Assembly: GCA_973895155.1 (NCBI GenBank)
Contig: OZ316899.1
Span: 15,589,974 to 15,653,973 of the forward strand
DNA length: 64,000 nucleotides
Direction: 5' to 3'
Source: Marsupella aquatica
Lineage: Eukaryota > Plantae > Marchantiophyta
This document shows positions 1,701 through 56,111 of the stretch, piece by piece. Both the position numbers and the translations under genes were made by a program. The notes beneath the pieces were generated by a model, which ran no database searches, was not told the origin of the DNA, and saw nothing but the letters and a program-made list of their open reading frames with translations. Each line of letters starts with the position of its first letter. Position 1 is the first letter of the stretch.

Positions 1701-2989
1701 TACAATAGTACTAGCACACATTCCTACGTTGGATGTGTGCCACTTGGCTTTCATCCAAGCGTTTGGGCGTAATCCATGCCCTCTTGGATTCAATATAAAT
1801 AAAGTGGTGAGGGAAACTCTCTCCTCATTCCCACATTTTAATAATGTTCGCATCGAAGCGATCCTCTTTTCTTCTCTCATATTTTTCTTCTATTCTTTGC
1901 TTTATATACATAGTAGTGAGACATTCTTTGGCCTGGATAGCAAAGGAATGAGCGATAGACTTATAGATGGGACCTTAGGGAACAAGGTCTTTTTGGGAAC
2001 TTAGGGGTGGGGCATCCTTTGGCTTGGATAGCAAAGGAATAAGAGAGTCATTATGAATCCAGGAGGGAGAGATATCCCTAATCTTCCCTTTCGTAACCCA
2101 TTTTTGTTTAAAGTCCATCTTTTAGACAAACCATCCATGAGATAACATTTAACTTATCACTTTGGAGCTCAATTTGCAGCTGCTGTTATGAGTTCTAATG
2201 AGCCAATAATATACCCAGTAGTGTCTTACCGAGAGGAGTGAGAGTGCATTATCTTGGTCCTTTATTGAAGTCATGGATCTAAATAGGAGTCCAAATGACA
2301 TTCATATTTCATTTTTTCTTTGAGATATTAGGGTCATATGTCGTAGAAAAATTAGTTTCTGAGATCTATTGGTCCGCAAGTATGGTGAAGTATGATTTAA
2401 TAGTATATTAGTTTTACCTAAATCTTTCATAATACCCACTACCCTTCTTACAAGAGTTATCATTTTAGTTTTAGTGTAGAACTTATGGGCATGCAAGGTT
2501 GACTTCATAAGAGCCAATATGCTCTTACCAGAAAACAGGTCACTCGGACAACAAACTTTGAGTTCCGAGGGCTTGAGTGTGAGCTCTTCTTGGGCCCAAG
2601 GCCAATGGAGTTGACGCCAAGGGCAACGGACGCTTGGGGCGTGAGTTATGGCCCAACCCGGGTTTGACCGATCTGGGACCCCAAGCGGCAATGAGACTTG
2701 AGGGCATAGGCATGAGCACTGGGTCGGCCCGATCACAACGGGCTAAGGCACTTTGCTTGCGGATGCCTAATGAGAAAGTTATGGGCATTGCCAGTGGGTG
2801 GCACGCCCACTATGCGCGATAGGATCCGGGTTGGAGGCCAAATGTTTAGGGACCAAAGTTGGTCCGGGGGTGGCAGGTCTCCAGAAGCATATATGAGGGG
2901 AGTGGTGTCTCCCTGGGGGCCAAGGGCGAGTTGAAGTCGTGAGCCGCGGCGGTCGCGACACTAAGGGAAAGAGCCAAACAAAATGACGA

Positions 2990-3772
2990 TATCTTCTCAA
3001 CTAGAAGTCCATTGAAGGACTTCTTGGGTGCGTTGGAAAGCTCTCAGATGGGTCTGGGGGTGCCATGGGTTCTCGAGGTTTGCGGGTGTTAGCTTGCCCA
3101 CTGGCCAAATCCTGTCGAAGAGGAGCCAAGCTGCGTTCAGTATCCCAAGGGAGCTTGCGTTGGGGAGGCAAGGCCAAGTAGGCGTGGAGGTTGAGTTCCA
3201 AGGGTGATCCGCCCTAGACCATCAGGGGGGCAAACTAGGAGTTGGTTGCTAGAGTCGAGGGCATTCTGGTCCCGGTGTGTTGGGACAAGTTTGGGACAGG
3301 CTTTAGGACAAGCTACGCTATTTGGGCCATGAGCATGTCATGAGGTCGAGGCGGTCAGTTGGTGATGGATAGGTACAAGGGGGAACCTGGGCCGCGCCCA
3401 AGGAATGAGTTGTTCTGGACAAACAGTGGACGTGGGTTCTAGTTCCAGCTTATGACATTAGGAGGACCTATCGCTGACCTATTTAACAACGTCTGTTGAG
3501 CTTGAGTTAGGATGCTAGACTTGGCGAGTTCTAGATCTTGAAGGGTTACTTACCGAGGAGCTTGGTTGGTTGTGCAGACAATGAGGACCGTTGAGTAGCG
3601 GTCGTGTTGGAGAGCAAGTGCGTCTTTGTATGGGAGGGGCCGTTGGCGGTGCAAGGGGCACTAGGTTGCTTGCTCAAGGTATTTCGTGGAGGCGTTTGGG
3701 CACTAGGGGCACTTAGGCATGAGTGTTGGGATTGGTGAGGGCGTTGGGTGGTAAGGTCCACCACTACTATGT
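2990..3772. repeat. Dispersed repeat, inverted homologue of 32577-33300 (probable retroelement fragment)
   Basis: The minus-strand translations here (ELNLHAYLALPPQRKLPW; VVDLTTQRPHQSQHS) match the plus-strand ORFs at 33089 (ELNLHTYLALPPQHKLPW) and 32577 (VVDLATQHPHQSQHS). Confidence 0.8.
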
Positions 3773-5369
3773 ACATTATAACTCCTCTTTTGCAGATGTA
3801 AATTTCTACCTACAACGATGTTCCAGTCGACAATGAGTGTTTCAGTGCGCATACCTGGCATGGGGTTCTAAGGGACCTGTGGTAGGTGCGCCAACTACTC
3901 CCAAAGACCCTTGTTGGATACGTGCATTCCTACTTCCTTATCTAAGTTGTGGTCATAAGGATTGTCCTCCTCATCTTCCGACAAGGCTATGCCTTGAGAC
4001 CCATCTTCTTCTAGGTTCCACTCTGGGTCCAAAAACCCACAGTTGGGGTTTGGGTTCACCCACTCCTCAGGGGCCTGTTCGCAAGTTCCTTTGTGGGGTT
4101 CTCAAGCTCTTTGTTCATCCGGACCCTAATTATTGACACCTAGATTTGTGTTCTCCCTTGTATGGGATCTGTTGTTTTTGTTGTTATCTTCACCTGTCCT
4201 AGGGTTTGGATGCCTAGTGTTAGGACTTTGGTTCCTGACAATTTCCCTAGACTGCTGCACCCCTTCATGGTGGGGATTTGCAGGACCACCAATGGAGCTC
4301 TCCTCTCTGGTGGACCTCTCCATTTCCCCATGAGTGTTCAATGCTTCCTGATGTGCTGCCATCCCAGATCCCACATGAGCTCTAGTGTAACCAGTTGTCC
4401 GTATCTTATTGCTCATTGTGCTAAGATAATTCCTTCCAAATCCACTTCTTTCATATGGATTAGTTATGTAATCCTGTCTACTCATGCTTTTGAAAACCCT
4501 TCAACTGAAACACTCCCGCACGACAACCATTTTTGGGCCGCCATAGCCAAAAGTTTTGTCTTCCAGACCCTTTCATTGTTTTCTACTCACCGCCATTGCT
4601 TTTACGGTGTGGATTCATTGAGACTATGTACTATGAAAGATTGGCCTTGATCGAGTCAATTGTCCCATAAAAATAGAAGGAGGATGTGGACATTGACAAG
4701 GAATTGATTGAAGTCATAAACTTGGAAGAGAGAGAAAGGAGGACGTTCAACCATTAGTTGGGCAATTAATGTATTGATTGGTGAAGGAAAAGGAGAAGGA
4801 CTTTTAGTGACCGGTAATTGCAAGGCAAAATTGGCGTTTAATACACACCAAGCGAAGTATGAATCTGGAATGGGCAAGGCTCCATCTCAACCTTCTTCAA
4901 GCTCAATCCTTGCATAGCTGCCTTCCCCACCATGAAAGGTTGTGCACCTTCTCCTTTACTTACCAATGAAAGGTTGTAACCGTCATAAGTAGGATATAAC
5001 AATAGGGTTTGAGATTCAGTTAGAAGTTAGAAGTTTTGGTTAGAGTTTGGGCGCTTATGAACTGGCCTTGGCAACCACTGGTTATGACTTGTGGTGTTTT
5101 TGCAGTTTGGACCAGGTTGAAGCTCAGTGGCACTTCATGCATAGGAATCTGGTGTTAGTTTAGCCCTACCCTCCTTAGTCTGCCAAGGATTTTGTTTGAG
5201 TGTTCCCTACTTGTTCATGAGTAGTTTTTAGGGAAGTGATTGTCATGACTTTGATGTTGTATTTGAGGGAATTTGATTGACACTGACAGATTCAACGTGT
5301 CTCAATGAGATTTGTACTCATTGGAAACTGTGTTGGTGACATGAGTAACTAAATATTGAGAGCAAAGAT

Positions 5370-8300
5370 TGTGATACCATGGCTATGTCCAAAGGAATTC
5401 AAAAGTTAATTTTTTTGAAATTTTTCTATCATTACCGGGTTAAAGGAACCTATTACGCCCGAAAATGGCCATAAAAAGTAGTTTTAAGTACAAAATCCGG
5501 AACTATCCGGATAGCACTCTTTTTGGAACTTGAAAAACATTGATACAGCCGCACCATGAGAGAAGGCGTACCAGAATGAAGATAAAACCATAAGTTCAAC
5601 ATCCGTCCGGATACTCAAAGTTGGCTCCTGAGTTCTTAAGGTATTGTTTGGGATGCAATCTACACACCAAAATGCTGCAGAAATCTTTAGTCTGAACTAT
5701 TGGAGAGAATAGAGTCGGACGAGGCTGCCAATTTGAGGCATTAGTTGTGAGGAACTGGTTACGAGGGAAGTGGTGATCGTTTGCTTGAGTGGGGAAGAGA
5801 CGACGCAACTTCTATGTTCCGGATTTGAGATTTGTGATAGGAATTCTGGAATTTTACTAGGGTTTGGAATTCATTTTCATTCTCTCCATTGCCCATCATG
5901 GTGAAGAGAAAGGATCCGGACTTCTCCCCGGGAAAATCCGGAATCCAGACATTATCGAAGAGGTCTACAAAGGAGCAAACAGTCATTGTCAACAAGAAGC
6001 CATTGCGATCGAAGATACCATCAGATCAAGAGAGGAGGGATCGATTACAGGAGAATCTAGAAATGATGGGCTATGCAAAGTTGATGGAGTTTCCTTGGGG
6101 TTACCAGAGTGCCGTATTCATCAAGGAGATCCGAAACCGTTCCACCCTAATTTTGGAATTTCCGGATTCCATTTGAGCCAAACCAGAAAAATTGACTACG
6201 GCTGTTATCTCCTCCCTGTTGGATGTGCCCTTGAAGGGAGAAGGCTTTCTGACCTCGAAGAATGACTTTGCTGAAAATTACTTTGACGGAGAGGTCGATC
6301 CAAAAGATGGTTGGAAGGTGTCTCACTGCTGTAATGAGGAGTTTTTTTATATTCTGTCCTTTCTGCTACCAATTCTCTCCCCTGCCAAGCCTCAACGAGT
6401 TACAATCCGGATGGGAACACGATTGCTGCTTCTTACATAGGAGAGAAGAAAATTTCATGGGCAAAACTTTTGGAGGAAGTTATCGCTAAGGAGGTCCGGA
6501 ATCTTTATTTGAAGACCCCTACATTGCTTTCTTGCTATCTGGCCAATATTTACCCGATGGACCAGATAGATGAAGAAGCGGAGGAGTACAAAACCCAAGC
6601 GATGGTGGCCCAACTTGGAGATCCAGATCAACCACACTCCAAGGCTACCGACTCAAAGGAAGAAGCACCAGTTGAGATCCGGATTCCTAAGGCTAGAAAG
6701 GGATTAGTGCAGAGTCCAAAACCGGAACCAGTTCAAGATCCGAAACCTGTCCGAAGACTGGAAAGTAGAGGGAGCCTTCCGGGTGTGACACCAAGTTCCA
6801 AGTGGACTACCTCAGCTGTGGTCGAAAACCAGATGAATTATCATCTTGACGATCCGAGATGGGTGGTGGAATAATATGATCTTTGCTTGCGGCATTCCCA
6901 ACTATTCCGTTAGCGTATTTCATTTAATGAATCACGCCTGCTTCAAAGCACTTTGTCCGGACATTTGTGGAGAGTGCAACCGGAAAAGGCTAAACAACTT
7001 GAGGATCTTGTCGGGAAAGTGGCTGAGATGCTGAACTGCAGTCTGGTTGTCATCATTTTTACTTTGGATATGGTGATTAAAAGTCAGGCCAAGAAGAGGA
7101 TCTGGGACTTGGAAGACCAAGTAGACAAGGACAAAAGGAAGATTGATTCCTTGGTTGATCAATTGGATGTGGCCCAGAAGAAGTTGGAAGACCATCTCCA
7201 GATCTGGAAGCTTCTGAATGGAGCAATCACCAGTGTTTGGGAAGCTATTAATGTACCAACCTTGGACTTGTTGGAAGCCACCCTGATTGATAAGTACTTA
7301 GCAACTGCCAACCCAGACATTCTTGCTAAGGTTATTGAGTGTAATAACAGGTTTGCCAAGAAGATCACGGGGGATTTTGATCAAATGGAGAAGGTGATTC
7401 TAGATGCAAAGTCCATGTTGACCCCTTCCAGAATCCGGAATGTCCCCAATGATTCCTGATGCAACCAAAGTAGGAGGCACTCCACCCGGATTTGAGAAGG
7501 TTAAGTTTCATTTTCCGGTTGTTTCTCCTTCGACAATCAGTACTCCATCAAGTTCTTCTTTGGATTTGCAGGAACCAGAAACTACCCCTAGTTTAGGGAC
7601 ACCATCAAGACAAGTCAATGCTAGACGTGAGTCGGGTAGAGTAGAGTTAGAGGATAGTACCCCAGAAGATTAGTAGTTTTTAGATTAGTTAGTTAGTTAG
7701 CATTTTTGGATCCGGTTAGCATCCATCTCCGGATTTTGAAGTCCAAACCGGAAGTGCATTTTTGGATCTTTCCTTATTGTCACTTTCGGATTTTGAATGA
7801 TAGTTGCTTTTTCTTCCATGAAAACCGGAAATGACATTTTGATACCTTTTGAGATCTTTTCCTCTTTCTCTTTAGCGTCTTAAGTAGGATGACAATTACA
7901 TTTCTTTTCAATCCTCAGTTTCTGTTGGAAGCATTGAAGCTCCTCCTCAGGTGCTCATGCTGAGCCTCAACCTGTTGTGAGTAGAACTGAAGACTCCTTC
8001 TCCTGTTGAGAAGTTAATACTTAGACAATTTGAGATCATACTTGGAAATTGGATTTTGATTTGAATTGCTTAATATGTGGATTCTTGGTTGCATTGGACT
8101 CCTGCTACTTTCAGTAGTTGAAATGAAATGTTTCCTTGCCATATATGAGCAACCATCTAAATTTGATTGAGAAGTTATTAATTTGAATTGACAATCTGGA
8201 AATTTTTGTGTGAGAATTAACCAATTCAGGCATTCTAGTACCGTTGTCACTTGTTGACCTGAAAAAATTATTGGTTTGATAACTAGATCTCCATTTCAAT

Positions 8301-8692
8301 TTCTAGTTAATGTAGGATGTCTATCTAAATTTGGCCACATTGTGAGCTCTATTGCATTCTGAATCTTAAAAAGCTAGGATCCTGTTGATCTATTGGGGAT
8401 CGTCATTTTCCATCATCTCTTCCCATAAGCCAATTGAAAGGACATTTTTACTCATCTTTTTCCACACCTTTCTTTAATTGTTAGTTTTATTCATTGATTG
8501 CCATTAATCCTAGAGCACTCCTTGGCAAGGATATGCCTAATGAACATCCTATTTCTTCTTTTTAGTAACAATTTTCTTCTCATTAACTCTTCAAGGGAAC
8601 GAATTCAAGTCCTTAGATATTAAATTGTTATTTAACATTGTGACCACTCTACCACACGCTTTTTAATTCCTTTGAACAGCCATGGTATCACA
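5370..8692 (+). mobile_element. 3.3-kb TG...CA element with ~35-bp TIRs and 5-bp TSD AAGAT, carrying a PMD-like ORF (giant solo LTR or non-autonomous TIR cassette)
   Basis: Left end TGTGATACCATGGCTATGTCCAAAGGAATTCAAAAG; right end reverse complement TGTGATACCATGGCTGTTCAAAGGAATTAAAAAG. AAGAT lies at 5365-5369 and 8693-8697. Confidence 0.9.
5889..7673 (+). pseudogene. Plant-mobile-domain-like transposon protein with C-terminal coiled coil, disrupted
   Basis: ORFs 5889, 6192, 6470, 6953 and 7440 join via stops and frameshifts. Motifs: GYAKLMEFPW, LLPILSPAKPQRVTI, LLEEVIAKEV..PTLLSCYLANIY, then a heptad-rich IWDLEDQVDKDKRKIDSLVDQL. Confidence 0.65.
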
Positions 8693-11261
8693 AAGATTGA
8701 ATGATGAAAGTGTTATGCATGATCAAGAGATTCCTTTGAGAGAATGATGAGATTGAGTGAGTCAATTTGAGTAAGGAGACAAAGAAAACAAATCTAGGTT
8801 ACTGGGATGCCACCTTCCATTGGGAATTGAACAAGAATTGAAAAGTTAAGCTGGTCAATCACTGATCGCAAGGTGGAAGTTGAAAAATCAAGTGAGACTG
8901 ATTGCTCTGAGGCAAGTAATCTGAGAGTCAGTCAGAGTAAGAGAATTGTGGAATTGTTGTGCAAATTTGCCCAAGGCAATTTAAACAACAAGCAATGAAA
9001 TGTTAAGTTGGTCAATCGTTGGCCGCATGAATGTATGTGAATGAACTCACTCCTAATGAGTACTTTGAGGCAAATGCCTTGAGAATCTAACAAGACAAGC
9101 AACTCATGAGGAGAGGACTCTGGTTGAAGTTTGTGTGTTTTGAACATGACATCTTGGTCATAATACACCTCCACCATAACAGGGCAATCGTTGAATTGAC
9201 ATTCCTATTGCGGATATCAGTTCACAGTCTACTCTACTACATGAAAAAAGTTTGATCACCAATTGGTAGATAGATGAGGCAATTGGGCCTAATTCTCTAT
9301 TGGGACAATTTTTGAAGGATAATGTTGAAAATAGGAAGAAAATAGGAGCTCTACTCAGTCCTCCTTTCAATATGCTCACAAGTGCGGATGAGCAACTGGG
9401 AGAGCCCCACTCCCCCTTATGCCCTTGAACTTGCCTCAACCGTCCCAACAACATTACTCCTAATCACATCACCAGTGTATTGACAGGGGTTTGCTCTTGA
9501 TGATGGTTCACTTCCAATGATGATCGGGCCAAAGCCGTAGCTCCCCTCATGCTTGATAGTGACTACCACTACATAAGGGTCATTGTAAGCATGCGAGGAA
9601 ACAGTAAAAAAAATCCTTGCACGAGCAATTTTTTCTCATATGACCCCTAATTTTTCTATATCCAACTTACTTGTTAACAACAGCCTGGTTGATAACATAC
9701 ATTTTTCTGACTCCTCTTTTTGCTAGCAAACTAGCTACTGGAGTAGCCATATGGAGTCATAAAAAAACACAAATATATAAAAAGTAGAAAACGCAAAAGA
9801 AATTTAAAATCACTTGTGTCTGGCTAACAAAATTCCTGTTTGCTCGCATTATACAATATCTCACTACATAGCTCTATAATCATGATGTGCTTCAAGTGTT
9901 TTGCTTACATTTTTGCACTCCTAATGCATTAACCGAGGTATTCTATGTTGCGAGCAAACAAGAGTTTTGCTAGCGAGGCAAACAGGCTAGCAAGGCAACT
10001 TTCTAGGTACCTTTAGGGTAGATGAGGCGGATTCCCAAGTAAGATTGTGGATAAATTTATTGTGAAACAGTTATGAGTAAGGGAAATGCAGATACTTGAA
10101 TATCCACAACCCGGAAACTTGAGATCTTCACAACACTGAACTGAATGACAAGGCATCATCAATGTCAACAAAACCAGTTCTGAAAACCTTTCACAATCCA
10201 CCTTTAATAGAACTTTGTAATGACAAATATGTTTGCGAATGAGATTGCATCTAAAATTGACCATTAGTCATTGAGAATCCTTTGATTCCAAATCATCTGC
10301 CCGATCATTTGAGGCATTACTAGGATTGCTACTCGACTCCCTATCAGTCTCCTCAGCTAAATTGTCAACATACTGGGCTACAGTACCATCATCTATGAAC
10401 TGAGGGCAGTAAAGGGCTTTTCGAGCACCCCTCACTGACCGCACACCTTTCCCCTCCCAAGCCAAAACGACGGGTGCTTCATCAACCTCCTTTGCAGACT
10501 TTTCGGCATAGTAAGGAAGCGCAAATCCCTTCTCAGGGGTCACAAGAAAATGATGCTCAATTTCTTTTTGAAGACGGAATATCTCCTCCAAAAACCAATC
10601 CGAACGCCTATCACTGAAGAAATCACTAGCATCGGATCAATACTACGATCCAAAAATTCTACAAATAATAGAAAAACACCGAATACGGAGTTTTGCATCA
10701 AAGGCCAAGTACTTTACTCCAGGTCAAATTCATCCTTCTTGTCTGAAGGTCCTCCCTGATCATCTCCTGGGATGGTGAACTCATCCTCCGATCCTTCATC
10801 ATTGGGGTCCTCTTTCTTTGGATCTGCAGCCCCTTTCAACTTCTAGGCATGTCTATCCAACACATTTGCCAGATTTTATTGAGCACACGAATGAAGTATG
10901 TCTCGATCTTCAACACCCACAACAAATCTCCCTGCGTATTCCCCAGCGGCAAAAGCACTTCCATCGCCAATAGTCCAATCAATGACAATGTCTTTTGGCA
11001 AAGTAAGGATCTCCATTACGGCTTGCATGAACCCAACTGACAATCTATTGGAACCTGCGAAAGCCGCCCTGGGACTGGGATCAGTTTTTGGGTAGCAAAC
11101 ATTCAACATCGATTTATGACGGGCATCCTTAGAAGAAGTCAATGGAACATATCCAGTATGTTTTGGGACTTTTGCTGAGAATTCCACCTTGCAGAAGACA
11201 TCCATAATGAGAGTAACTACCTGAATTGAAAACAAGAATTTGTCATAAATGGGTACTTTTG

Positions 11262-11279
11262 GTTAGCGAGCTTGCTAGC
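11262..11279. promoter_or_regulatory. 18-bp palindrome GTTAGCGA-GC-TTGCTAGC in intron
   Basis: Variant of the consensus GYTAGCGA-NN-TCGCTARC, inside intron 11221-11324. Function is inferred only. Confidence 0.6.
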
Positions 11280-13459
11280 AAAAATTGCACAAAAAATATT
11301 GAGGAATTTAATAGAATATCTTACCTCTATGTCCATATTTGTTTGATACAAAGGAGATGAAAGCAAAATTGAATACTGTCGGACATGTTTGAATTTGTTC
11401 TTCTGCTCAACGACAATTTTTTGTGTCTCATATGGTTATAGTCAAAGTTGTGAAGAACTGCAACATAACCATCATTGACAAGCATTGGACGCATGACTCC
11501 AAAGAAATAATATGGTAATTTCTCACTCCAAACATTCCACTTCGGGACCTCCCGGTCTGTGATACTCATTCTATGACCCGTGGGAAGGAAAATGAAACCC
11601 AAGTGAGCACCAATCCCAGAGTACGGTTTGCCGTTGATTATCATTGGATTTGGGTGTTCGCTCAATTTGCTCATTGCAGACAACCACTGATCTGCATCGC
11701 CCATCCAAGGAGGTCTTACTTTCCTCTGGCTAATTGGGTTTGCAATTTTAGTGAGATTGCTTTTTGCCAAGAAATGTCTATCACCGCCCTTCTTAAGACC
11801 ACACATTTGTGCTACTCCTTGAGCGATGCATGCTTCCTCCTCATTCGAGTCGAAGAGAATTTGCACATTGCGCTTCCTCTTTAAACGCTTGATTGAACCA
11901 AGGTCTACAACAAATTTTGTTGTGACCTCAACATCAGGAGACTTGGGTTCTTCTCCATCATTGGCCCCACTCTTCAAACTCCCGGAGGCTGCTGCCTTTC
12001 TCTTCTTTGAAAAACATGTTCATGTCAAACAGGTCACTCAGACAAAATTACTCTGAGTGCAGTATGAAAATAAGAGGAGAAAAGAACTTACTTTGCTTGC
12101 CAGACAAGATTGAACCATCTTTAGACAAGTCCTTCACCGGCACCTTCCAAGGTCTCCTCGATCAACTCCGGTCAACAATGGGAGCCACACCAATAATAGC
12201 TTTCTCCATTGCCTCACATCCGCCAGCCTCTGCTTTTGCAGGAGCTAATTTGGACTCCGTAATGTAAGACTCTAGTATCAAGTCTTGATTTATCATATGA
12301 AAGGCTGCCTTCTCTGCAGTGTCAAATGTCACTGCCCATTTGTCTGATGCCATGGACAGTGAAGGATTTCCCACTCACTCATCTTCCTTGGAGCCTCCAC
12401 TCCCTCACATGGGTACATCGAGTACTCTCTGTATTTAACAGAGGTTGGATCCTCTTTCACCCCTGCTATCCAAGGCAAGAAGCAAGCAGGATAGGACCAC
12501 CAATATGTTTTGTCAGCAACTTATCTATCCACAAAAAAACAATACGTATATCTCTTCGCCCTCCTCCAAAAAAGTGAGATGTCAATCTTCTCACCCGACT
12601 TTGGTGGCCAAATCTGTTTGAAAAAATGAGTTTTCACTCTTGTTTGGAAATCTTCAAAGTCCTCCTCTATGTCAAGGATCAGCAATGGCTTTGTCTTCTC
12701 AGACAAAGTAAGGATCCTCGCATCTGGAACAGTTGGGATCAAATCTGAAATAATCTTAGACATGAGTGAAGAACAAATTGACTCGACCTGCTCCCATACA
12801 GCCCATCGGTGAAGCCAAAGTTTTGTTTTGGTGTCAGAGAATTGACCGGGTGGAAGAAATTCTTGCAAAGCTCAAGTCTGCATTGTGCTTCAAGGAGTAC
12901 ACATCTCAGCTGGGGTGTCAATGAAGAGACACCAGTAAATAGTCTCGCACGATCGAGACCACACGACACATTCCCGCTTCCTTTGTCGTCTATTTGTTGG
13001 GCCTCCTTCCTCTCATGTTCGTAGTAGTTGTGCATCTCAACACACTTCTGGAAAAAGTCACCAAACTCAGGAGTCAGAAGAGGTCCAATCTTTGGCACCT
13101 TCACATTCCAATCTGCTAGTTGTTCCTTCATCATGTCTCTCATAGCCATGTCTTGCGCAACTTTAGAAAACGGTTCTCCTTGCGCTTCTTTCAATTGGAA
13201 CTTCTTCTTCAAATCTTTAGTCTGCGCTGCAATATTAGCAACAGACAAAATGTACATGCAGGCATCGAGTGTCATGTTCTTCGAATACCAAGCCGGTTTC
13301 CTGATATTTGCCATCTTTTGCTGGAAAAGTTTGTAGTTGTCTCCATCAATGATCTTTGTGTACAGAAAGATCATTGTTGAGCACCTTATGGACTCGCTCA
13401 GCTTCAAGCACCCAAGAATTCTCAACGTGACATTCAGTCAACCTGAACCAAAGAAACAG

Positions 13460-14744: not shown

Positions 14745-15509
14745 TTTAACATTCCATATATAGTTCCATATAAGACAAAACAATGGTCAAGTAACGGGAA
14801 GATGGGTCATTTATTAAATAAATACGTTGAGTCAAACACCTACATGAGAACGTTTTCTCATATGTATATGGAGAAATAGGAGTGCGACGTATCTCACAAG
14901 TGAGGAGTGTTGTAGACTGTCATGTCCAAAACTATCAACATGTCTTCTCTAGGATCCAAGGTTGTAATCGAGAGAAAGAAGACCGGTGATGTTGTTGTTC
15001 TAGGTGTTCCAAAGAATAATGTTATCTTTGTCAAGGAGTCTTTCCTGTTATTGAGGTTTGGGCTTTTGGGCTTTTATCTGGAAGTTGTTCCTTCTTTATT
15101 CTAGGAATGGGTCTGGAAATCATGAGGTGCCGGATAATGGTTCAAGAATATTGTGACGCCGCCGGTACGGTGAATAATGAGTAATTCGGTCTAAACCGCG
15201 CTTAGCACGTGCGTTAGGGGTATCTTAGGCCACTATTATTAGCATAACGATAGTATTTAGGTAGCCATTATGAGTAGGAAATCATTAGTCAATAAGGGGA
15301 ATTCATGTTTGGACTGGCGGCGTGTCGCCATTTGCACGCCCGGGTTGCGAGCGTGGAGGGCCCCCCCCTCGGGTCCGTATAACAAACTTAGGGAAGTGGC
15401 CACTGACACGCGCTGACTCAAACCGGCGGAGTGGCCGGTACACTACAAGCGTGAACGGTTCAGCCTATAAGCAACGAGGAGACGTAGGGTGATTGACGAG
15501 CCCTCAAGG

Positions 15510-15518
15510 TATAAAAGG
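15510..15518 (+). promoter_or_regulatory. TATA box of the element-internal ORF
   Basis: TATAAAAGG ~100 bp upstream of ATG 15617. It is conserved in copy 2 (ccttTATAcc on the plus strand near 31172-31180). Confidence 0.55.
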
Positions 15519-15616
15519 GAGCCGACCCTTTGTAGTGCACCAGTCCATCAGTCCACGCGCCAGCTTTGACCCCAGCCCTCTCGTTCTCTCTTAGTCGCCA
15601 CTGCTATCTCCTCTGA

Positions 15617-18144
15617 ATGTCGCACACGATCCTCTCCAGTTCGGCCATTCGATTCTGGACGCAGTTCCTATCTACCGGAAGACACTTGGCCGACTCATTG
15701 AAACACGCCAACCCGTGCCGATATGAAATTGAACGCGAGTACAAGAGAGCCATCCGCCTAGCAGGACGACACCACTATATCCTTAACTTTGACTACCCAT
15801 CTTAGAGCGAGCTTTACCGACCAGCAGAGGTATCTGGGTACTTCTTCAACGGAGACAAATATATCGGTTTCTGGGAAGCATTGCTTTGGCTTTCGGATGA
15901 GGTCTTCAATATCCCGGGTACGATCGACTTGCAACGGCATCACTTCGACCACATCCCTGCTCAGGTTCAGGCTATCATCAACAGCGAGTCCAGCACTACC
16001 CGTTTGACAAGGCCGTCTGCACTTGCTTCGGAGAACTTCTACCAGCACCTGCAGAGCTTCATGGGAACTAGACCCTCAACCGCTGGCGCCGACCCAGTCG
16101 ACCCCATACCCGTACCCGCACCAATGCAAACTCGGGCTCAGCTTCAGTCTCAGCCTCAGCCTAGCCAACCCACAACGCCGATCGCCCCGCCAGTACAAGT
16201 ACGCTCCGTCATCAATATTGTGGACCTTAGCGACGACGACGAGGCTACCCCACCCTTGCTCAGGCGGCCCAGAGGAGCGAACACTCAGGGGGCCGACACT
16301 ACATTGTCCCCTCCCCATGTCCGGATCCAAGGAGCGGCTCCAGCAGACAACACGGTGACCGTGGCCGCCCCGGGCCCAATACTAACGGCGGTAGCACTAC
16401 CTATGCCCAATCGAGAGGATGGGGAGGTGTCACCCTCCCCGAGCCAGTCACGAGGGAAGAAGAGGAAGGAAACCGCTGCTGCATCCGGGTTACCAATGGC
16501 CACGGTAGCCGCGGCCAAGGTGACAATGCACCGCATGGGGGAAAACGTGCATAAAAACATCCTCCATCCCAAACATGTGGTGTACCTGAAAACTCAGGGA
16601 TTTGAGCACCTCGCCTCTCTCCCCTGGAACACTTGCAGGTACTACGGGGAGGACATGACGGAATTTGTCAAGAATTATGACGATGCATGTCAACATAATC
16701 GGCTGCAGGGAAGGAATATGTCCCTCACGGAAGAACGGCTCAAGATGATCTTCGGGTTACCCGAAGGTGACCACCAAGTTGAATCACGGGCTCCCGGGGG
16801 CAAGGGAGCCAAGTATCAATCCTTGAGTTTTCCCTCCAAGGGATCAGTGGACAACGGGTTCGTGATGAGGACCTGCCTCATCCCCAAGATAGTTGAGCGA
16901 CTAGAGTTCCAAAGGTACGCCCTACACATGATGGAACCCCGGGGGGAGATCTCCGTTGCCCAGGTTATCCAGGTCGAGAACTATCGACCTAGGAAGTGGG
17001 CATCGTACTTCGCTAAGAAATTCCATGAAGAGATGGAGCGGCGAAGAAAGACGCTATACATTGGCGGGAAGGCGTATTTCGCTAGCCACATCGAGATCAT
17101 TCTCGAGTGGTACACTCGGTTTGATCGACGAACCCTTCCCCGTGTCAACGTAACAAAGCTGGTCCCAGCTAGGTGGGTTTTCCCGGCCTTGGAGAGACGG
17201 CCCCAACACGAGGCCCGAAGTCCAGCGGCCACGCAGGCTTCACCCACCCCACCTCCACAAGTAGCTGTAGCCGTGGCCAAGGAGGTATCGGATGGGTCGG
17301 TAATCGCAACCGTAGATGCGATCAACCAGGCCGGGCAAGTACAAAAGTTGGGACAGCGAAGGCCTTACTCAAGCCCGGGTCTCCCAAAGACCCACCGGTG
17401 GCTATTCCGGAGGACCGAACATTGCTGCAGGAGGATACTCCAACCCCTTCCAACACTACGTCCCCAGGGCTGGATGTCACTGCCCCAGCCCCCGCGCGTG
17501 TTGACGTATGCCCGTGCCCAACTCCGGACAGGCACAACCTGGACCACCCGAAACTCTTCGTACCGGGTACATTTCTGAACGGGCTTATGGGAGATTTCTC
17601 TCATCAAATTTCCCGGGATACCGGGGAGTTCATGGCCCGAAAGGTAGACTATTTCTTCAATCAGGAGTTGGTTGACGCAGTAAAGGCAGGTCGGGCCTAG
17701 TCAGAGGCCCTTCAGAGGATAGAGCGGTACCGGGTGGAGTCTGTATACTTAAAGAATGAAGTTGCGGCTCAAGAGGCTGAGCTTCTACAACTACGACCCA
17801 AAGTTGCAGCCGCCGATGAGTTGTTAGCGAAGGCGCATGCCCTTACCGCCCTAGCCGAACAGGCCAAAGCTGGGAACGAGGCCGAGATTGCATGACTCCG
17901 GAACCAGATTGACAGTTTGAAGAATCAAACTATCATCTGGCAGAAAGACCTGGAGGAGGCCAAAGAACGGGCCCAGCGGGACACTGCGGAGATAGCCACG
18001 CTACAAGCCGAAGTGGCGCGGCTCCAAACCGAAGCTGAGAAGCAGGACCAGTTGGCGGGCAAGCTGACAAGCGACCCCCAGCAACTGGAGGAGGCATGCC
18101 AGGAGGCAGCAGAGGAAATGGACGGGGCGGCCCTTAGTATTTAG
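15617..18144 (+). pseudogene. ~850-aa protein: N-terminal domain, Pro-rich linker, PMD/transposon-like domain, coiled coil
   Basis: ORFs 15617 and 15881 are in the same frame across a TAG (CAG in copy 2). One frameshift at ~17350 and stops at 17698 and ~17893. Core motif GFEHLASLPWN..EFVKNYD..LTEERLKMIFGLPEG..WASYFAKKFHEEM. Confidence 0.8.
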
Positions 18145-19362
18145 GTCACCCCTCGGTAGAGGCAGGGGGATTTTTTTAGTCTCGGTATTGGACATCCGCG
18201 GTATGTGCGAGGAGTCCCGACCTCTGGGAGTGAAAGAGTACCAAGGGGAGGGTGTAAGACTAAGCTTGCTGGGCGAGTGCGGAGCCGGGCTCCGTTGTAG
18301 TGTACACCCTCGGCCTCGGACCTTTTCAATCCAGAGCATTCGGGTCAACTAAGTGTACGCGTATGTCTCTTATGGAGTAAAATCCCTTCCCGTTATTTCC
18401 TTCGTGTAAATCGAGATTTTATGCTTGTGCGTATGTATGTGTGTGAATCTCGTGTATAGGTGCCAACGCTTGGCCGAACGGACTACCCAAGTAGTGCACG
18501 GGGTGCAGCTTGCGTGTACATGGTTGCGAGCCCGGGTTGAGCACCCATATCATCAAAATCCGGATGGAAGGCGGACAATACGAAGGCTTAGAAGCCCTTA
18601 AGCCAGGGTCGATCCTGCTATCGATTGAGGTACGTTCCGGCGGCGGAACACAAATCATACCTAGGAGGTGTTCGTATATGATGATAGGCACACTTAGCGC
18701 TATTTTACGTAAGTTGGGTGCATTCCGTGCCTCCCTCCCCTGCCCGAACCCTCATTTTGACAAAGGAGGTGCCTGTTTAAGCCAAAGCCCGGAGTAAGGA
18801 CAAGGCTGACGACGTGACAAATATTGCCAGAGAGAGTTTGGGACCTGAAGTGTGGTTCAGTTGTAGAGATAGTCTCATGTAAGGATGACATTGCATATAT
18901 CAATGTTTTAGATCTAGACTCGCTAACTCCGCCGACGTTACCTGTACCCAAAATTATCAACATCTCCCCTAAGAATGTTGGTTGGGATCTCTTTTTTGTA
19001 TCCACAAAGTCTTCTGAAAAAGCCCTTTTTGAAGTTGTGAGTCATAACGAGTTTCAATCTCAGCCAGTTCTACATAGAGTAAGTGCATATGATGCCTTCC
19101 TCAATATTACTGGGTCAAGCAAGTTGGCAAATTTCCATAGGGGAAACGATTGGAAGGAGATTCAAGTGCAGACTTTGCCCACTTCATACAATGGGAACTG
19201 CGTTTTTGAGCTTCCTCTAGTCGAAGGTCAATTTTGTCAAGGATATGGTCTTCAGGACATGGATAGGGATAATGATGGCTACCCTTGGAGAGGCTTGTCA
19301 CAACTTCAGCTAATCTGAAACCCCGCAACCACTGGTTTGTGTCAAAAGTAAGATGTGCGGGT

Positions 19363-21403: not shown

Positions 21404-22519
21404 TCAGACAATCAATTTCCTAAATAGGCTCACAACAATTCTTCTCCTAGCGGAATCCATGTCCTGAGCCGTGAAATAAAAAACCATGTCTAAACTACGG
21501 TACTCAGCAAATTTCATGACAAATACGCCACAATTGTAGCTGTCGGATTGGCAAGGAATGTCCTTGCGTGCGTGCCTGGGCCACTCACGAGCCCAAAGGT
21601 GCTTCTGATTTTTGGTTCTCAATTCGTCGTCCATGTATTTTGCCAGGTTTTTCAGAACATCCGGCTCTTCACCATGAAGGGAATCCAGATACTCTAGGCA
21701 TTTCTCGTTCTTGTCAATGACGACCAATGCCCAATGGCTTCCGCCGTTGACGTGAATAGGGACAAAAATACAATCACAATCAAGCAAGAAATACGTCAAT
21801 TTTGAGGTCCATGACTCCACCGCCGCATAATTATAACCATTCTTTGTGAGTACCGAGTAGAACCAGGTATCAAAGAAATGGCACTTGAAGACTCTCATCC
21901 CTGATCTGTCTTCCATCGCTTTGATGAGACCAAAATACGCGTTCATAACCTCGGAAGTTATCCATTCTCCTAGAGAGAGGCATCTCATTTCTTTCCGGGT
22001 TATGACGCAACCATTAGCGGTGCTGACTAAAACTGCATCTTCATCCAAGTCAGGGCTCAGGCAGAAGTATATGATGCCGTCGTCGTCCACCTGGTCCGAT
22101 GGAGGGTTTTCTTTTGGTGACTCATTGACAGTAGTAATGGATTTAGTTTTTTGGACCCGGGCGCCTCTTTGAATCGTAGGCTCAACGATAGTGCTATCTG
22201 ATACTCCTCCTGGATGATGAACATGAGCTGCGACAACGGACTCTTGACCCCAAACTGGGGTGCTATTATTATTATCATTGGAAAGACAATAACGTGGACG
22301 ATCGATATCGCGGATGATCGATACTTGCGAGTCTCTTAACAAGGACTGTCCGGATAATAGCCCAGCCAACACTACTGCCCCGTCAAACGACTGAGGCACG
22401 GGGCGGTCATGACCGGCTTGCACTGCACACGAGAGCAAAGGCAGAACTGCTGCCAAACTCCCCCGCACGTCTGTGTCTCCTTGGGGGTATAGCGACGGAG
22501 ACAGGAAACAGGTAAACAA
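21404..22519 (-). CDS. Ulp1/SENP-type SUMO protease (peptidase C48), transposon-associated; true start or splice site uncertain
   Basis: WITSEVMNAYF, HFFDTWFY, IFVPIHVNGGSHWALVVID, YLDSL, QSDSYNCGVF. The His-Asp-Gln-Cys catalytic residues are intact in an open 371-codon frame. Confidence 0.9.
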   Translation of the reverse strand: MFTCFLSPSLYPQGDTDVRGSLAAVLPLLSCAVQAGHDRPVPQSFDGAVVLAGLLSGQSLLRDSQVSIIRDIDRPRYCLSNDNNNSTPVWGQESVVAAHVHHPGGVSDSTIVEPTIQRGARVQKTKSITTVNESPKENPPSDQVDDDGIIYFCLSPDLDEDAVLVSTANGCVITRKEMRCLSLGEWITSEVMNAYFGLIKAMEDRSGMRVFKCHFFDTWFYSVLTKNGYNYAAVESWTSKLTYFLLDCDCIFVPIHVNGGSHWALVVIDKNEKCLEYLDSLHGEEPDVLKNLAKYMDDELRTKNQKHLWAREWPRHARKDIPCQSDSYNCGVFVMKFAEYRSLDMVFYFTAQDMDSARRRIVVSLFRKLIV

Positions 22520-22810
22520 GAATTTTTTTTCCTGTTTTTAATATGCTGTTACCAGGAAAAAATCACTGTTACCAGGAAAAATGACAATTTAAAAATGTCT
22601 CCTAAAACATGTTATTTCCAAAAAAAATTAACAATGCAACATTTTTGGCTAGCTTTCGGCGCTAGCAAAAAAAACTGGTCGACCAAAAATAATAATAATA
22701 AATTCTCAACAAAAAAATTTGAAAAAATTCAAAAAAAATTTCCACTCATTTTCCTGTTACCAGTTTTTTTTCCTGTTACCAGTTTCTGTTATTAAATCAT
22801 GTTTCCTGTT
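22500..22810. repeat. Cluster of CTGTTACCAG / TTTCCTGTT motifs and one GCTAGC-N7-GCTAGC palindrome
   Basis: CTGTTACCAG at 22546, 22566, 22754 and 22773. GCTAGCTTTCGGCGCTAGC at 22648-22666. Confidence 0.75.
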
Positions 22811-25800
22811 TGCTGTCTTTTGTAAACACCTCCTCCTTGGAGACCCTTGTCCACAGCGCTGTCCATTCGCATACTCGCAGATAGTGACCACTGGCTGCCC
22901 TGGCATTCAGATCTTGTGTGGAGCAGCCCGGTGGTCTCCACAATGACTTTGCAAAGCTCGACACCTTGTCGAGAGACTTCATGTTCTCAGCATACGCCGT
23001 GAGGTCCATGACGTCCTCCCTGGCGGAGCAAAATTAGAAGCACTTGCGTTCCAAGAGTAGTGCATGCTTCAGAACCTGCCCCCCTATAAAGAAATCGAGC
23101 ACTATTTCCTCTTTTTTCAAGAAAGCTTCTATTATAGCTCGGATTATTCGCCCGGGCTTGATATTGGTAGTGAAGGAGCGGCCGCTGGGCGATCTGAACG
23201 GAACCCAATTTTCCAGCCTAACTTTCATCGCCGCTTGTTTGATGCTAGCCATCTCCCCATTGGGACGGTCCGTCGATTGTTCCTTGCTTGCCTTGCGGAG
23301 CTCCACTCGGTCTCCGTCTTCGAAGCTGAAATGGCCGGTGAAATTCTTGAAATGCGCTTCCCAATCCGGTTTCCTGTCTTGGGAAACACCGAGAAAAATC
23401 ACAGTTTCCACCACACCTCTCATGTGCTGCCGCGGGAGAAGCTCAAAGGCATTCTTGAAATAGGTGCCATATTCAAGATGGGCATTATAGTTATCGGGGA
23501 GACATCGCGCCGCCTCAATGATCCATGCTAGAAGTATTCCCGGATGCACAAAAAAGATGACCTTCAATGACTCGTTGGCCGGAACATTGACGACAATTTT
23601 CAGAAAATTCAATATTTTTGATTGTGTCCACGTATTGCCCCGGTGTGTGTCAAGTCCACGATCGCAAGAGATGCCACAATACTCTCACTACAGCTAGAGC
23701 AATCGAACGCTGGCTCGGCCAAAGCGAGAAAATTTCCAGTGTAGAAAATTCTGTAGGGATCCATCCTCAACCGAATATGTCCACCAAACTTCTTCAGATA
23801 CAGATTTTGTAGCCTATTTTTCAAAGCCTCCGACATGTCGGCCCTCTCGAACACCTTCACCAGGCTCCTAAAATATCCGGCATCGACCAATGCGCAACAA
23901 TGATCAAGTTCGTCATTCGTAAAATCAAACGTCCGAATGATGTCCGCCCAGAGAGCACCGGCCGAAAACAATTGGTCATAGTTTGCACGATAGAATCGCA
24001 GGATTGCGCATTTCAGTTTGTCCATATACTTTGCCTTTGCTGCCAGGTCGGACATGGTCGGCATATCAGTTAAAGCGTGTTTCTTTCTAATCAACAACGC
24101 ATCACCCGAAAGGACTTTCATTAAGATGTCGGTGATGTCGGATTCCCGCGTGCCCTCGAACACTTGGAACGTACTTCCGTTTAACCTCTTCGCTTCCTTT
24201 GGTTTGTAAGTAACCTCTCCAATGTTGTCGGGGAAATGTCCTTTCAACCAACTGTTGCAAACCGCTCTCCACAATTTGTACAGGTCTTCCGAGGTGAATA
24301 GGATCCAGTTGTACTCGTTGATGGTACTCATTTGCAGCGTGAGTTTTGCAAGCGCCTCGTACTCCTGATCATTATCAATCATAAATATGTGAATCAAAGA
24401 ATTACACACGTTGCGTACACTACATACCCTGCATACCCGTTCACTAAAACACTTAAAAATGTAGTCATGATTTTCTTCCCACCCATCATATAAATAAACA
24501 CAAATCCTCCATATACTACCTAGAATTCGGTGGACTTTCGCCCAGAAGGAAGTGGACGAGCTGGACGATCCATTTCGCTGTACTGCAACCGGGCGTGCTC
24601 CACCTGATCAATGAATGGAGACAAAAACCTGTGTGCTTCGGATTGCATGTTGTTTGCATGGGAAATCTCCACCAGAACTTGGGCAGGGGTCGAACCCTTC
24701 AGGATTTGAGCCCGTCGATATTTCAGTAACTTGGCGGTTTGCATCAACGCCGGTTGGGTTTGCGCACTCCTAATTATCCTCTTTGTAGCCATTGCTGAGT
24801 GTTGTCCACTGATTGCAAAATATTTAAATTTGGACAACTTTTCGGAATCAGAATCAGAAACAGATAGGTCGATGAGTTTGTAAGCCCCGTCGATGCCAAT
24901 GCTGTAGGCAACCAGATCTACAGGTAGTGGCTCTTGACCACTAATCATGAGTAATCATGAGTTTGACGAGGTGATTGACATGATCATCATTCAATAAACA
25001 CTCGTTCATCTTGGTTGGGGGAGTGTGGATATTGTCCACTGGAACCGTGCAAAGCGTAGATAGTCCAAAGGAATACCAACACTTGTACAACTGCAAAGTC
25101 CTCTCTGCATTTTCGAGACGAGAACGATCAACCAACAATATTGAACTATCATCCACATTCAGCTCGATGGTGTTGATCGACACCCTTTTCTTCTTCTCGA
25201 CCCTGCTCATGTCCCCTTCCTCTGTCTTTGTTTTCGCTCCACATGCTTGTTCAATGTTCTCCCCTTTGCTTCTTTTCCCCGTTTTTTTGGCATCGCCTGA
25301 GGTTCCTGTTTTCCCGATGCCTCCCCTTTTTGTGCTTCCTTTCCTTCTTCCCTGGTTGTTGCTGCTGCTCTCTCTCTCGTGATGACCTTTCTTTCGGCTG
25401 CTTTCTAGACGTCTCATTCTCCGGCCCGGTCTTTGTTTGGGGTTCCTTGTCTTCGCTCCTTTCAACTTGCTGCCTCTCTCACGTGCTTGGCACCGTCAAT
25501 TGTTTATCGTCCCTATTTCTCTTTTTGCGATTTTTGAACTGATCCGACCGTAATACCACTTCAAGCATTTCTTGCGGCACACTGCATGTACCTTCCACAC
25601 CCTCATTACCCCCAAATCTGCCTGAATGAGATGGATGACAAGGTTCCAGCTTCCTCGTTTTTGGCCCTGATTCGGACAAATGTCTAGCTTGATGAAGAAC
25701 TGGATGCTTACGGATCCAAGTTTTTACATAATCGCGATTGAATTTGTTTGTGAAAATTACAGCTTTGTCGATAGTTATCCTCTCGCGAAGCTCATCGTCA

Positions 25801-26078
25801 CCTATGGTACGCGCCATGATGTGTGCCACCTCTCTAGTTTGGGACAAGAAAAGTCCATGCCTGTGATTCAATAAGAAGTTTACCCTTCCAAGCCTGTACA
25901 GTATATAATCACAACATATGTCACGATCTTCATCCATGAACGACTCACAAGTGGGATCAAAGAATCCGTGCGATGTGATGTTCATCCAGACATCGTAGGG
26001 TTCAAGGCAATGTGCACAGCAGAATCTTCCAGCAAGTGCGACAAATTGCTTGAAACTCAAACCTTCAAGATCCTCCAC
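22797..26078 (-). pseudogene. Second, divergent ParB-like + N4/N6 methyltransferase-like fusion gene
   Basis: ORFs 25479, 24941, 24520, 23609, 23034 and 22797 chain together. ParB-like KYFAISGQHSAMA..LVEISHANN; phase-0 GT-AG intron 24365-24519; MTase-like IKPGRIIRAIIEAFLKKEEIVLDFFIGGQVLKHALLLERKCF. A 10-bp duplication at 24942-24961 causes one frameshift. Confidence 0.7.
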
Positions 26079-52875: not shown

Positions 52876-53769
52876 TATCTCTTAATGCCCTCCAATGACC
52901 AGGACATTACCCTATTTGTGTTCCACCATCTACTCCTATATGAATCCAGCGATCTCAATTATAATTCACGCCTTTTCATTGTCGTACACACACGACTGCT
53001 CATGAATCGCAGGATCCACTCACGCCGGGGACTGGGACCGATCCACTCACGCTTGGACTGGGACCTGCGGAGCGGAGGTTTTATTAATCATGATTGGGTA
53101 CGGTTGCTTTTCTTTTAGGCCTGAGCGAAGGTTCGGGAAGGACACAAAAGGGTATCGAAGGAGCGGGCCACTTCCCACTGCTCTTTCTTATATTCTTGCC
53201 ATTTTGCGAAAGCTCTCTTGTCCTTCTGCGAAAACGCTTGCATCAGCAACTCCACAAACTCACGCGTTCTATCGATCATATTGCTAACGATTGTGGCAGA
53301 ATTTCACTCGTTGAGCTTGCCCATGTCCAGCATGGCCATCTAGTTCAGGAATTCCTTTTGTCTCCCAGGGAAGTCACATTGCCGCAACGCTAGCCTTGGA
53401 AGTGGGAAATCTAGAAAGAGTTGGGACGAGCCATCCGTGGTGTCGCTAAAAAACATTGCAACAAAGATCTCCAACCTCTCCTTCGAGCAGAGATATACAC
53501 AACACAAACTGTTCTTTGACGGAAGTAAATGTCTAGACATCTGGGAAGCTTTCCTTGGGCTCCAGGACCACATCTTCAGAACTACTCCAGGGGTTGATTG
53601 ATTTGACCCGCCACCACATTGATCACGTGCCCATGATCGGTCCCATCAGCTAGGGCACAAGGGACTCATGGCGTCAGGAGTTGGAGGGCCATCACAACGA
53701 CGGCAGCCGCAACCCGGGAATGAAGCCGTGGCCACGGTTCCAGTAGTAGTGGCATCGCCGCCACCCGTA

Positions 53770-54347
53770 GGCCCTCACTCTTTGTATATTATACAATCAT
53801 ACCTGTGAGCCTCCCCTACACAGGTACCCATTCTTATTAATTTTTCTCCTATAGAGATTATCCTTGCTTTTTATAAAAACCAAAAATTTCCTCTTATTAA
53901 AGTATCTTCAGTGTATTACAAAAGGGAGTTTTGGGCAATAATAATTATCCTTCATATATTACAATTTCACTCCACACACCCGGTCCATCCCCCCAGGATC
54001 GCCCCCAATCCTCCCTTCAAATTGTTTTTGGCTTAGCATAGCTGCCAGTATTACTATTTTAATCTATGAAGGAGATATGGATACTGTAAGGATAATACAC
54101 GTGTATCAATTATAATTTGACACGTGTACCAACAATATGATGTCGCGTGTTGCTACCTATTGATTTACCCTTTTGCAAAAGTAAGAAGGATGTCATTTCA
54201 AGGGATCTTGCAAAATTACAAAGTGGTTTTGGTATATATGCGGAGGTTGCGGAATTGTAAGCGAATTATAAAAATTACCGCCGAAGGGATAAAAATGACC
54301 CTTGAACGGTTCTCACGTCCTCCCCGTATTAGAAAGGAGTGGGGGCC
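53770..54347. mobile_element. AT-rich MITE with GGCCC-type TIRs (PIF/Harbinger-like)
   Basis: Left GGCCCTCACTCTTT, right reverse complement GGCCCCCACTCCTTT. It interrupts a GC-rich coding linker. TSD not clean. Confidence 0.6.
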
Positions 54348-56111
54348 CAGGGGCCGCCACCAGCCCCGATGTTACCCTTGAGCAGTGGGCAGCAACAACA
54401 ACAACAACAACGGGCGCCGCCGCCCAGGGCAACACCACCACCAGTTGAGCCACCATACCTGAGTTCTGACAAGGAGTCCATTCCTCTCAATAGACGACCC
54501 TCTCGCCAACCCACCCAAGCACAAATCCGAGTAGCGGCGGCCCAGGTAGACCAGACGCAGGGCCAGGCTTGCCAGACATCGACACCAATGGTTGTCACCT
54601 TGCCCACATAGCCCGCCCAATCAGATAGTAGGGAGGATCGGGATTCCGGATTATCACACCCGACCGATCATTCCGAAAGCCGAAACTGGAACCGCAAGAG
54701 GAAGGAGCCAACGGTGTCATTGGCCCACTTACCCATGGAGGTAGCCCGATTGATGCTACATCGGATGGGAGAAAACCTCCACCGGAAGATCCTCCATACC
54801 GCGCATGACGCCTACATCCGGGCACAGGGATTTGAGCACCTTGTGACCCTGCCCTGGAACACGAGCCGCTACTACACTAAGGACTTTGCACACTTCATCA
54901 CCAACTACAACGCAATGCAGGAAACTACAAGAGTGGAAGGACGCCTGATGTCCTTATCGGAAAATAGATTGTGGAGGATCTTTGGCTTACCCGAAGGCAC
55001 GGACAAGGTGGAGTCCAGTGCCCCCGGGAGGAAAGGGGGCAAGGTATCACTCCTCCAATTTTCCACCAGATGGGCACATCGACAACAGCTTCCTCAATCG
55101 GACGTGCCTCAGGCCGGAGATTGCAGAGCGCCTGGAGTTCCAGAGATACGCCATCCACCTGATGGAGCCGCGATGAGATATCTCTGCTGCACAGGTAATT
55201 CAAGTGGAGAATTACAGGCCAAGGAGGTGGGCTTCCTACTTCGCAAGGAGGTTCCACGAGGAGATGCTCCGGCTGCAGAATACCTTCCACATCGGGGGCA
55301 AGGCACATATGGCCAGCCACATCAAGATCATCCTCCATTGGTATGCCCGATTCGATCGAGGAGGTTTAGGGTGCAATGTGATGGAAATCATTGATCATCC
55401 ATTCTTTCTGTCCGACCAATGGCCCTAGCCCGAAGCAAGGAGCCTGGTAGACACGCCGGACAACATGAGACCGAACCTGGTGGCCGACTTGGTTGCCATG
55501 GATGCCCAGGGCCAGGCCATAGCCGCAATCATGGGGATTTGGGATCTTGTAACAACCATGGATCCAGAGCCGGCCCTCAAAGCCAAGCACTCTTCCCCGG
55601 TTGACATGACCCCGGAGCAAGCCGGTTTCTCACGTTGACCAAGGCAAGATTTGTAGGGCCAAGTTCCTTGTCAGGATCCACAGTCAATTGCGGCCAAGTT
55701 TCTCATCGCCTTGCTGGGGAATGTAACCAAGAATGTCTGCCGCGAGATGGGTTCGCTCATGACGGACATCTTCACTGTAACCAAAGACGAGTACCAAACT
55801 TCCCAATGTTAGAGGGAGGATGCGGAAAACTGATGCTACACTAAGACTACCAAGGCGATCCAAGCACATTTTAAAGAGGCCAATGACAAAATAAATGAGT
55901 ATGTGGCTTTGTCATTCATCACGACCGCGGACAAGGATGCGGAGATAGCTCGGCTTCGGACCCAGATCTACAAACTAGAGGGTCAGGAGCACAAATAGCG
56001 GATGGACATGATCAAGGAAGAAGCCACGACAGGGGTCGACGCTCTCAAGGCCGAGGTTGATTGCCTTAGGAGAGAGGTCACCGAGAAAGGCCACCTAACG
56101 GACATGCTACA

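Follow-up and report, generated by a model that had tools for sequence, protein, structure and literature searches.

Plant genomes disarm retrotransposons by the formation of solo long terminal repeats (LTRs), because the genes of the element are removed in this way. The present analysis concerns a gene-bearing unit, copy A, in a stretch of 64,000 nucleotides from the liverwort Marsupella aquatica (the window; assembly GCA_973895155.1, contig OZ316899.1, positions 15,589,974 to 15,653,973). It is best explained as a likely solo LTR of a high-copy Ty3/gypsy family with a decayed gene for a protein of predicted VANC/PMD fold inside, likely of anti-silencing function, a reading to which we assign a probability of about 0.6.

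In reviews, the extra open reading frames (ORFs) of plant elements are assigned to the internal region (PMC7264820, PMC6317226, PMC11728184). Target-site duplications (TSDs) of 5 bp are found in 93.4 % of plant LTR elements, and the LTRs of non-chromoviruses reach up to about 5 kb (PMC6317226). For RIRE8 and Retrosat2, LTRs of more than 3 kb, 10-bp ends resembling those of the unit and many solo LTRs are described, Retrosat2 having 2.6 solo LTRs per full element (PMC3485330). VANC21 lowers methylation and binds a nine-base motif that forms arrays in the non-coding parts of its transposon (PMC5735166). A VANC-like fold also occurs in the host MAIN/MAIL PMD proteins, PMD-A proteins are retrotransposon-encoded, and both VANC and the Athila domain are predicted to oligomerise via coiled coils (PMC13547354). 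For an accessory protein of a retrotransposon, a VANC-like fold is thus nothing new in itself.

Ends, insertion site and copies of the unit

The initial annotation had described TG...CA ends with short imperfect terminal inverted repeats (TIRs), a perfect 5-bp TSD, an own TATA box and a long ORF, and all of these were recovered (Table 1), the TATA box from the letters only. The TIRs match in inverted orientation at 6/7 positions in copy A and at 5/7 in copy B, which lies about 9 kb from copy A and was absent from that annotation. By itself, the combination of TG..CA, TSD and TIRs is weak evidence for an element: 69 such pairs were counted in the window versus 31-44 in five shuffles. Seven public sequencing runs are listed, six of which contain part of the stretch, and none is recorded as RNA; the contigs of four were aligned to it, with 375 to 11,142 aligning contigs per run. 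A contig of run X2 represents the empty site, in which 15146 is joined to 18820 and the 3673 skipped bases equal the element plus one TSD. The boundaries of copy A are solid because copy B has homologous ends with a different TSD and because the empty-site contig exists. Copy A is a real insertion. Its flanks (14900-15151 and 18820-19320) are a repeat whose reading frame runs uninterrupted across the empty site, is interrupted by the insertion and had no match in Pfam.

The initial annotation had also stated that primer-binding site (PBS), gag, pol and an internal LTR pair are lacking, and none was found at the copy A flanks or in nearby frames. Neither a PBS nor a polypurine tract (PPT) was present at the flanks, none of 104 stop-free frames (>=62 aa, 8.7-34.5 kb, outside copies A and B) matched a gag or pol family, and a Ty3 pol query gave no tblastn match anywhere in the window. 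Two of these frames match any Pfam family at all (Peptidase_C48 and N6_N4_Mtase); a transposase was detected neither among them nor in the unit, and the Pfam results for the unit contain no gag domain. No tRNA genes were found. Terminal direct repeats, named earlier as a possibly overlooked sign of a TRIM or LARD structure, were absent from copies A and B (self-BLAST, word 7), and local alignment of the 5' against the 3' part of the unit scored at or near shuffle level, so that the claim was not refuted on this point.

Copies A and B share an identity of 84-91 % at both ends and about 55-74 % in the middle, and dS climbs from 0.40 to 1.4-1.9 inside the frame. Because the ends are more alike than the middle and dS jumps within the frame, we infer recombination between subfamilies; the pattern resembles a chimera as template switching would produce. 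Besides the divergent copy C, the core domain has two more relatives, both decayed and very divergent, at 36657-35019 (-) and 38608-38835 (+), for which ends were not found; together they form an inverted pair of 74 % (36102-37014 / 39103-38249). In run X1, 7,697 contigs aligned to the 4.3-kb stretch, and 4,297 were less than 95 % alike. The summed depth of this run was 13,000-383,000 over the element versus 91 for the contig of the outer left flank, values that do not represent a copy number. As judged from assembled reads, depth and contigs of X1 show a large, divergent family.

Table 1 Features of copy A and its relatives, in positions of the window
Feature	Position	Strand	Basis or remark
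Copy A unit, TG...CA, 3668 bp, likely solo LTR	15152..18819	+	Ends, copy B alignment, empty-site contig
Left TSD AATAT	15147..15151	.	Sequence and empty-site contig
5' TIR TGTGACG (att-like end)	15152..15158	+	Resembles RIRE8/Retrosat2 LTR ends
TATA box TATAAAAG, then pyrimidine-rich patch ~15571-15595; candidate promoter	15510..15517	+	Kept in copy B
Decayed accessory ORF, about 840 codons	15617..18144	+	Two thirds of unit
Conserved N-terminal domain	15719..16075	+	Common to P0036, P0048, P0039; model failed, pLDDT 45
Core domain, predicted VANC21-like (PMD/DUF1985-type) fold	16511..17200	+	
C-terminal region, predicted coiled coil	17440..18144	+	Only sub-threshold coiled-coil Pfam matches
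Internal PPT-like purine run then TG, 560 bp from 3' end	18243..18262	+	Kept in copy B
3' TIR CGTGACA	18813..18819	+	
Right TSD AATAT	18820..18824	.	
Copy B, 3943 bp, own TSD AGTGG	31546-27604	-	Aligns end to end with copy A
Copy C, divergent, interrupted relative of the same ORF	53503..56100	+	Ends not found

The decayed gene and its predicted fold

A complete gene of ~850 aa had been reported in the initial annotation. The long frame exists, its completeness was not confirmed: in copy A it is broken by stops at 15803, 17698 and 17893 and by a frameshift near 17330-17440, it has no ATG at the position where the frame of copy B starts, and ~330 bp present in copy B (end of the ORF and 3' untranslated region) are missing at 18128. 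Contigs of runs X1 and X5 continue at 18128 with B-like sequence. The frame of copy B (840 codons, 30986-28464) contains three internal stops and no frameshift. The gene of copy A is a pseudogene, and that of copy B likewise. Differences of copy A from the other copies are mostly of the cytosine-deamination type, and the alignment of A and B revealed no introns in the frame. The dN/dS of A versus B was 0.08 for the core (95 % 0.04-0.14; 229 codons), 0.29 for the N-terminal domain and 0.18 for the C-terminal part, versus 1.5 and 2.2 in shifted frames as control. By these ratios, purifying selection kept the frame while the family was active; a value near 1, named earlier as the mark of an ORF that was never selected, was not observed, and the claim was not refuted.

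A HMMER search of 1.84 billion representatives yielded 34 relatives at E<=1e-3. Ten of them were looked up: five are annotated as 'unnamed protein product' of Calypogeia fissa, four are Logan-only, and the members of one in JGI/ENA/NCBI are hypothetical or without name. All relatives with a species name thus come from this liverwort, which points to a liverwort host. P0002 is also among the relatives; P0036, a 906-aa member of its cluster, shows the N-terminal domain, core and coiled coil as well. Copies A and B stand beside P0036 in a tree of 28 core rows, without starred support, and the tree is uninformative on the origin. In P0050, a gene model of C. fissa, reverse transcriptase, RNase H and integrase in Ty3 order are followed by the C-terminal part of a distant relative, suggesting a link to Ty3 elements. 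A word-index protein search found four proteins with a profile, and no match with a single query or among longer proteins. In a metagenome scan none of 104 pattern matches was confirmed; with the alignment of a relative there were three of 61, all of 26 residues at E 2e-4, which were taken as chance.

The core model, built from 27 sequences, reached a pLDDT of 88.9 and a pTM of 0.84. Among 48,161 solved chains compared (VIA), VANC21 was the only one above Z 5 (Z 8.3, rmsd 4.1, 200 residues aligned), the next scoring 2.5, and Foldseek ranked VANC21 first as well (E 0.026, probability 0.94, TM 0.50). The core is thus predicted to have a VANC21-like (PMD/DUF1985-type) fold. It is basic, with 33 K/R versus 24 D/E in 210 aa, and its stretch in copy A (16511-17200) is naturally free of stops. 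Pfam holds no family for the core of copy A, DUF1985 and DUF287 are absent from the Pfam results for the window frames and from the families listed for the 27 members, and a search of a viral fold library with the model gave no match at E<=0.001. An Atlas query with the homologue P0010 listed clusters of Transposase_32 (0.84) and ATHILA (0.83); both values are under 0.9 and give no more than a lead. The VANC21 and VANC6 motifs are not present in the unit. A degenerate 9-mer occurs four times in the non-coding ends of copy A and was reached in 0/60 shuffles at k=9. The word GTAGTGYAC recurs in non-coding DNA of the family.

Another family is represented by a second TG...CA unit with a gene, at 5370-8692 (+), which has perfect 12-bp inverted ends and the TSD AAGAT. 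Its decayed frame at about 5899-7459 has a coiled coil at its end, and the core-domain HMM gave no significant match to this unit. The 7-mer ATCCGGA occurs in it 14 times, which was reached in 1/100 shuffles; copy A has no candidate target motif as good as this one.

Interpretation of the unit and its surroundings

Copy A is probably a solo LTR, as integrase-type ends with own TSDs in two copies (AATAT in A, AGTGG in B) suggest. A full element with two gene-bearing LTRs would have been inserted by its own integrase with a 5-bp TSD, and LTR-LTR recombination would then have removed gag-pol, leaving a single LTR that contains the promoter and the gene. The protein of active copies would form oligomers via the coiled coil; it would recognise and bind a short motif in the family's own non-coding DNA and lower silencing there. 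The initial annotation had placed the gene in the LTR, with each solo LTR leaving an expressible gene behind; the evidence leans to the LTR gene, and the expressible gene did not hold for the pseudogene of copy A. That an LTR-encoded anti-silencing gene is kept in every solo LTR is a possibility we regard as doubtful. Tentatively, an Athila-type 3' extra ORF may have been taken into U3 as plus-strand priming moved upstream, at slightly less than even odds; a position of the gene in R/U5, with the main LTR promoter ahead of it, is less probable. The internal purine run followed by TG is a weak candidate for a relic of an older LTR start. Together with a TATA-like word near 18675 it would fit an older short LTR that was extended by the extra ORF and promoter as U3, a scenario put forward as a hypothesis because such purine runs also arise by chance; one further PPT-like run occurs within the ORF of copy A.

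Several results weigh against the preferred reading. No paired copy, PBS or PPT of the family was seen in the window, the flanks or the loose contig ends, and beyond the 3' end no shared sequence was detected, the agreement being 0.48 for seven contigs of X1 (random about 0.46) and 0.47 for eight contigs of X2 (random about 0.45). Both whole copies in the window are pseudogenes. P0050 comes from a distant family, is a predicted model and may be joined falsely; its predicted join fits an ORF in the 3' LTR as well as an internal one. The structural match is of modest quality (E of Foldseek as given above, rmsd 4.1-6.1, identity 9-11 %), and a Z of 8 is near the caution line of the tool. The fold is also found in host MAIN/MAIL and other transposable element (TE) proteins and is therefore no proof of anti-silencing. 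DUF1985, PMD, ATHILA and Transposase_32 had no Pfam match in 27/27 aligned members. Tandem motif arrays of the VANDAL type were not detected, exact 7-9-mers are not over-represented, and the search that gave the degenerate 9-mer had a P of 0.33 at k=8 and 0.2 at k=10, the motif not being the top one in copy B.

The 3' loose ends are many insertion sites. A PBS common to three or more of the listed ends is unlikely; two or fewer, a minority, may carry it. Run X6 had no contig on the 3' end. A purine-rich, PPT-like consensus before 15152 in X5 (six contigs, agreement 0.51) was within the random range of 0.43-0.52 and was not used.

A stand-alone non-autonomous unit, without a two-LTR parent and copied and inserted whole by a DDE integrase or transposase in trans, would account for the fact that each whole copy in the window occurs singly, between perfect TSDs, that the unit at 5370-8692 is built in the same way, as a single with a 12-bp inverted repeat that is perfect, and that the listed 3' loose ends have no common PBS. 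We consider it improbable: solo LTRs commonly outnumber full elements (Retrosat2, 2.6 to 1; PMC3485330), the inverted repeats match at no more than 5-6 of 7 bp, like those of LTR ends, a PBS or terminal repeats for an own retro cycle are lacking, and a PBS junction shared between copies can go unseen in assembled contigs and unitigs. Still less probable is a unit that is now a mobile element in its own right, with promoter and VANC-fold anti-silencing gene, inserted by a borrowed Ty3 integrase and shielding the family that supplies the enzyme. The chance of a TRIM, LARD or TR-GAG-like element, or of an accidental TG..CA/TSD frame around a host gene fragment, is negligible. The frequency of the signature in shuffled windows speaks for an accident; copy B, which has the same boundaries, and the empty site speak against it, and these two observations refute this whole group. 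Terminal direct repeats and a gag domain were not found, the interior is not non-coding, as it contains a selected non-gag ORF, and a host gene fragment disagrees with the very many divergent copies and with a frame free of introns.

A solo LTR with a gene inside may also have encoded an ordinary accessory factor of Athila/PMD type, acting in chromatin tethering, in nuclear import or as a particle or integration helper. The Atlas lead to Transposase_32/ATHILA and the lack of clear motif arrays point in this direction, as does the inclusion of host MAIN/MAIL factors among the PMD-fold proteins; the functions of extra ORFs are not known, and nuclear roles have been proposed (PMC7264820). This is nevertheless rather unlikely, as the only solved structure that matches the fold is that of an anti-silencing protein bound to DNA, the core is basic, and PMD-C proteins also oppose Polycomb silencing via DNA motifs. 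An anti-silencing role of the protein, predicted from the modelled fold, is a tentative assignment that falls just short of an even chance.

If the preferred reading of a gene inside a solo LTR is true, the accessory gene would survive solo-LTR formation and be doubled in every full element. The VANC-like fold would make the role of plant Ty3 extra ORFs directly testable, and sequence-specific anti-silencing, so far a feature of eudicot DNA transposons, would extend to retrotransposons of bryophytes. LTRs are treated as non-coding in annotation pipelines, which would label such units as host genes; the named relatives are annotated as 'unnamed protein product'. Copy A is dead, and its value is therefore that of a family representative.

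The window contains further repeats. Fragmented ORF clusters at 21404-25985 (-) and 10876-13374 (-) encode an Ulp1 protease (Peptidase_C48, E 9e-37) and N6_N4_Mtase-like pieces (E 2e-5, 0.03); they are probably decayed DNA transposons with a methylase-like gene. At 59700-63600 (-), fragments of a RecQ-like helicase (DEAD at E 2.5e-6, Helicase_C at E 0.003) lie next to ORFs of no known family, an arrangement that presumably resembles the telomere-linked helicases of fungi. Scattered CCCTAAA telomere-type words and 19-bp AG-rich repeats in long inverted pairs (42224-42775 / 51336-50778) occupy 41200-53000 and are perhaps nested non-autonomous DNA elements. Another repeat of 750 bp is present in two inverted copies of 79 % (3012-3765 / 33292-32582).

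Comparison with known systems

New is the arrangement of known parts, solo-LTR-type ends and a PMD/VANC-fold accessory ORF, in a place that we did not find described for plants. A literature search by listings, outside subscription papers and supplements, found no description of an ORF inside a plant or liverwort LTR; the supplements of PMC6317226, outside that search, may list extra ORFs that overlap LTRs. Its sole phrase match was sag of the mouse mammary tumour virus (MMTV). Like the unit, MMTV sag is a whole protein gene inside the LTR, with an own promoter in U3 (PMC9412291). Unlike it, the unit has an unrelated protein, sag being the superantigen of a mammalian retrovirus, and its frame fills two thirds of the unit and may lie in either U3 or R/U5.

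The unit resembles the rice Ty3 elements Retrosat2, RIRE3 and RIRE8 in an LTR of more than 3 kb with nearly the same terminal words TGTCACACCC...GGGCGTGACA, in the many solo LTRs and in the extra ORF, a likeness at the level of description. The ORF0 of these elements is described upstream of gag-pol, unlike the frame of the unit within the LTR (PMC3485330). With VANC21 and VANC6 of VANDAL, a Mutator-like transposon (PDB 9LNJ/9LNK; PMC5735166), the unit shares the predicted core fold, the TE-encoded origin and the coiled coil. It differs in an identity of about 10 %, the lack of a DUF1985 match in its core and an activity that is predicted only. Further differences to VANDAL are the retro-type ends with a 5-bp TSD, the absence of a MuDR transposase and the lack of VANC21/VANC6 motifs and of clear tandem motif arrays.

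The comparison with extra ORFs (eORF/aORF) of plant non-chromovirus Ty3/gypsy elements included Athila ORF1 (PF03078, Transposase_32 PF20167), Ogre PMD (PF10536) and Retand Transposase_28. Those ORFs are described between the LTRs, unlike the frame of the unit, which is inside a TSD-bounded TG..CA unit in both copies, and the protein of the unit has no HMM match to PF03078 or PF20167 as Athila ORF1 and Transposase_32 would have. In common with plant Ty3 extra ORFs are the long accessory frame, the globular core with a predicted coiled coil, the purifying selection, the Atlas lead to Transposase_32/ATHILA and a relative predicted downstream of a Ty3 pol.

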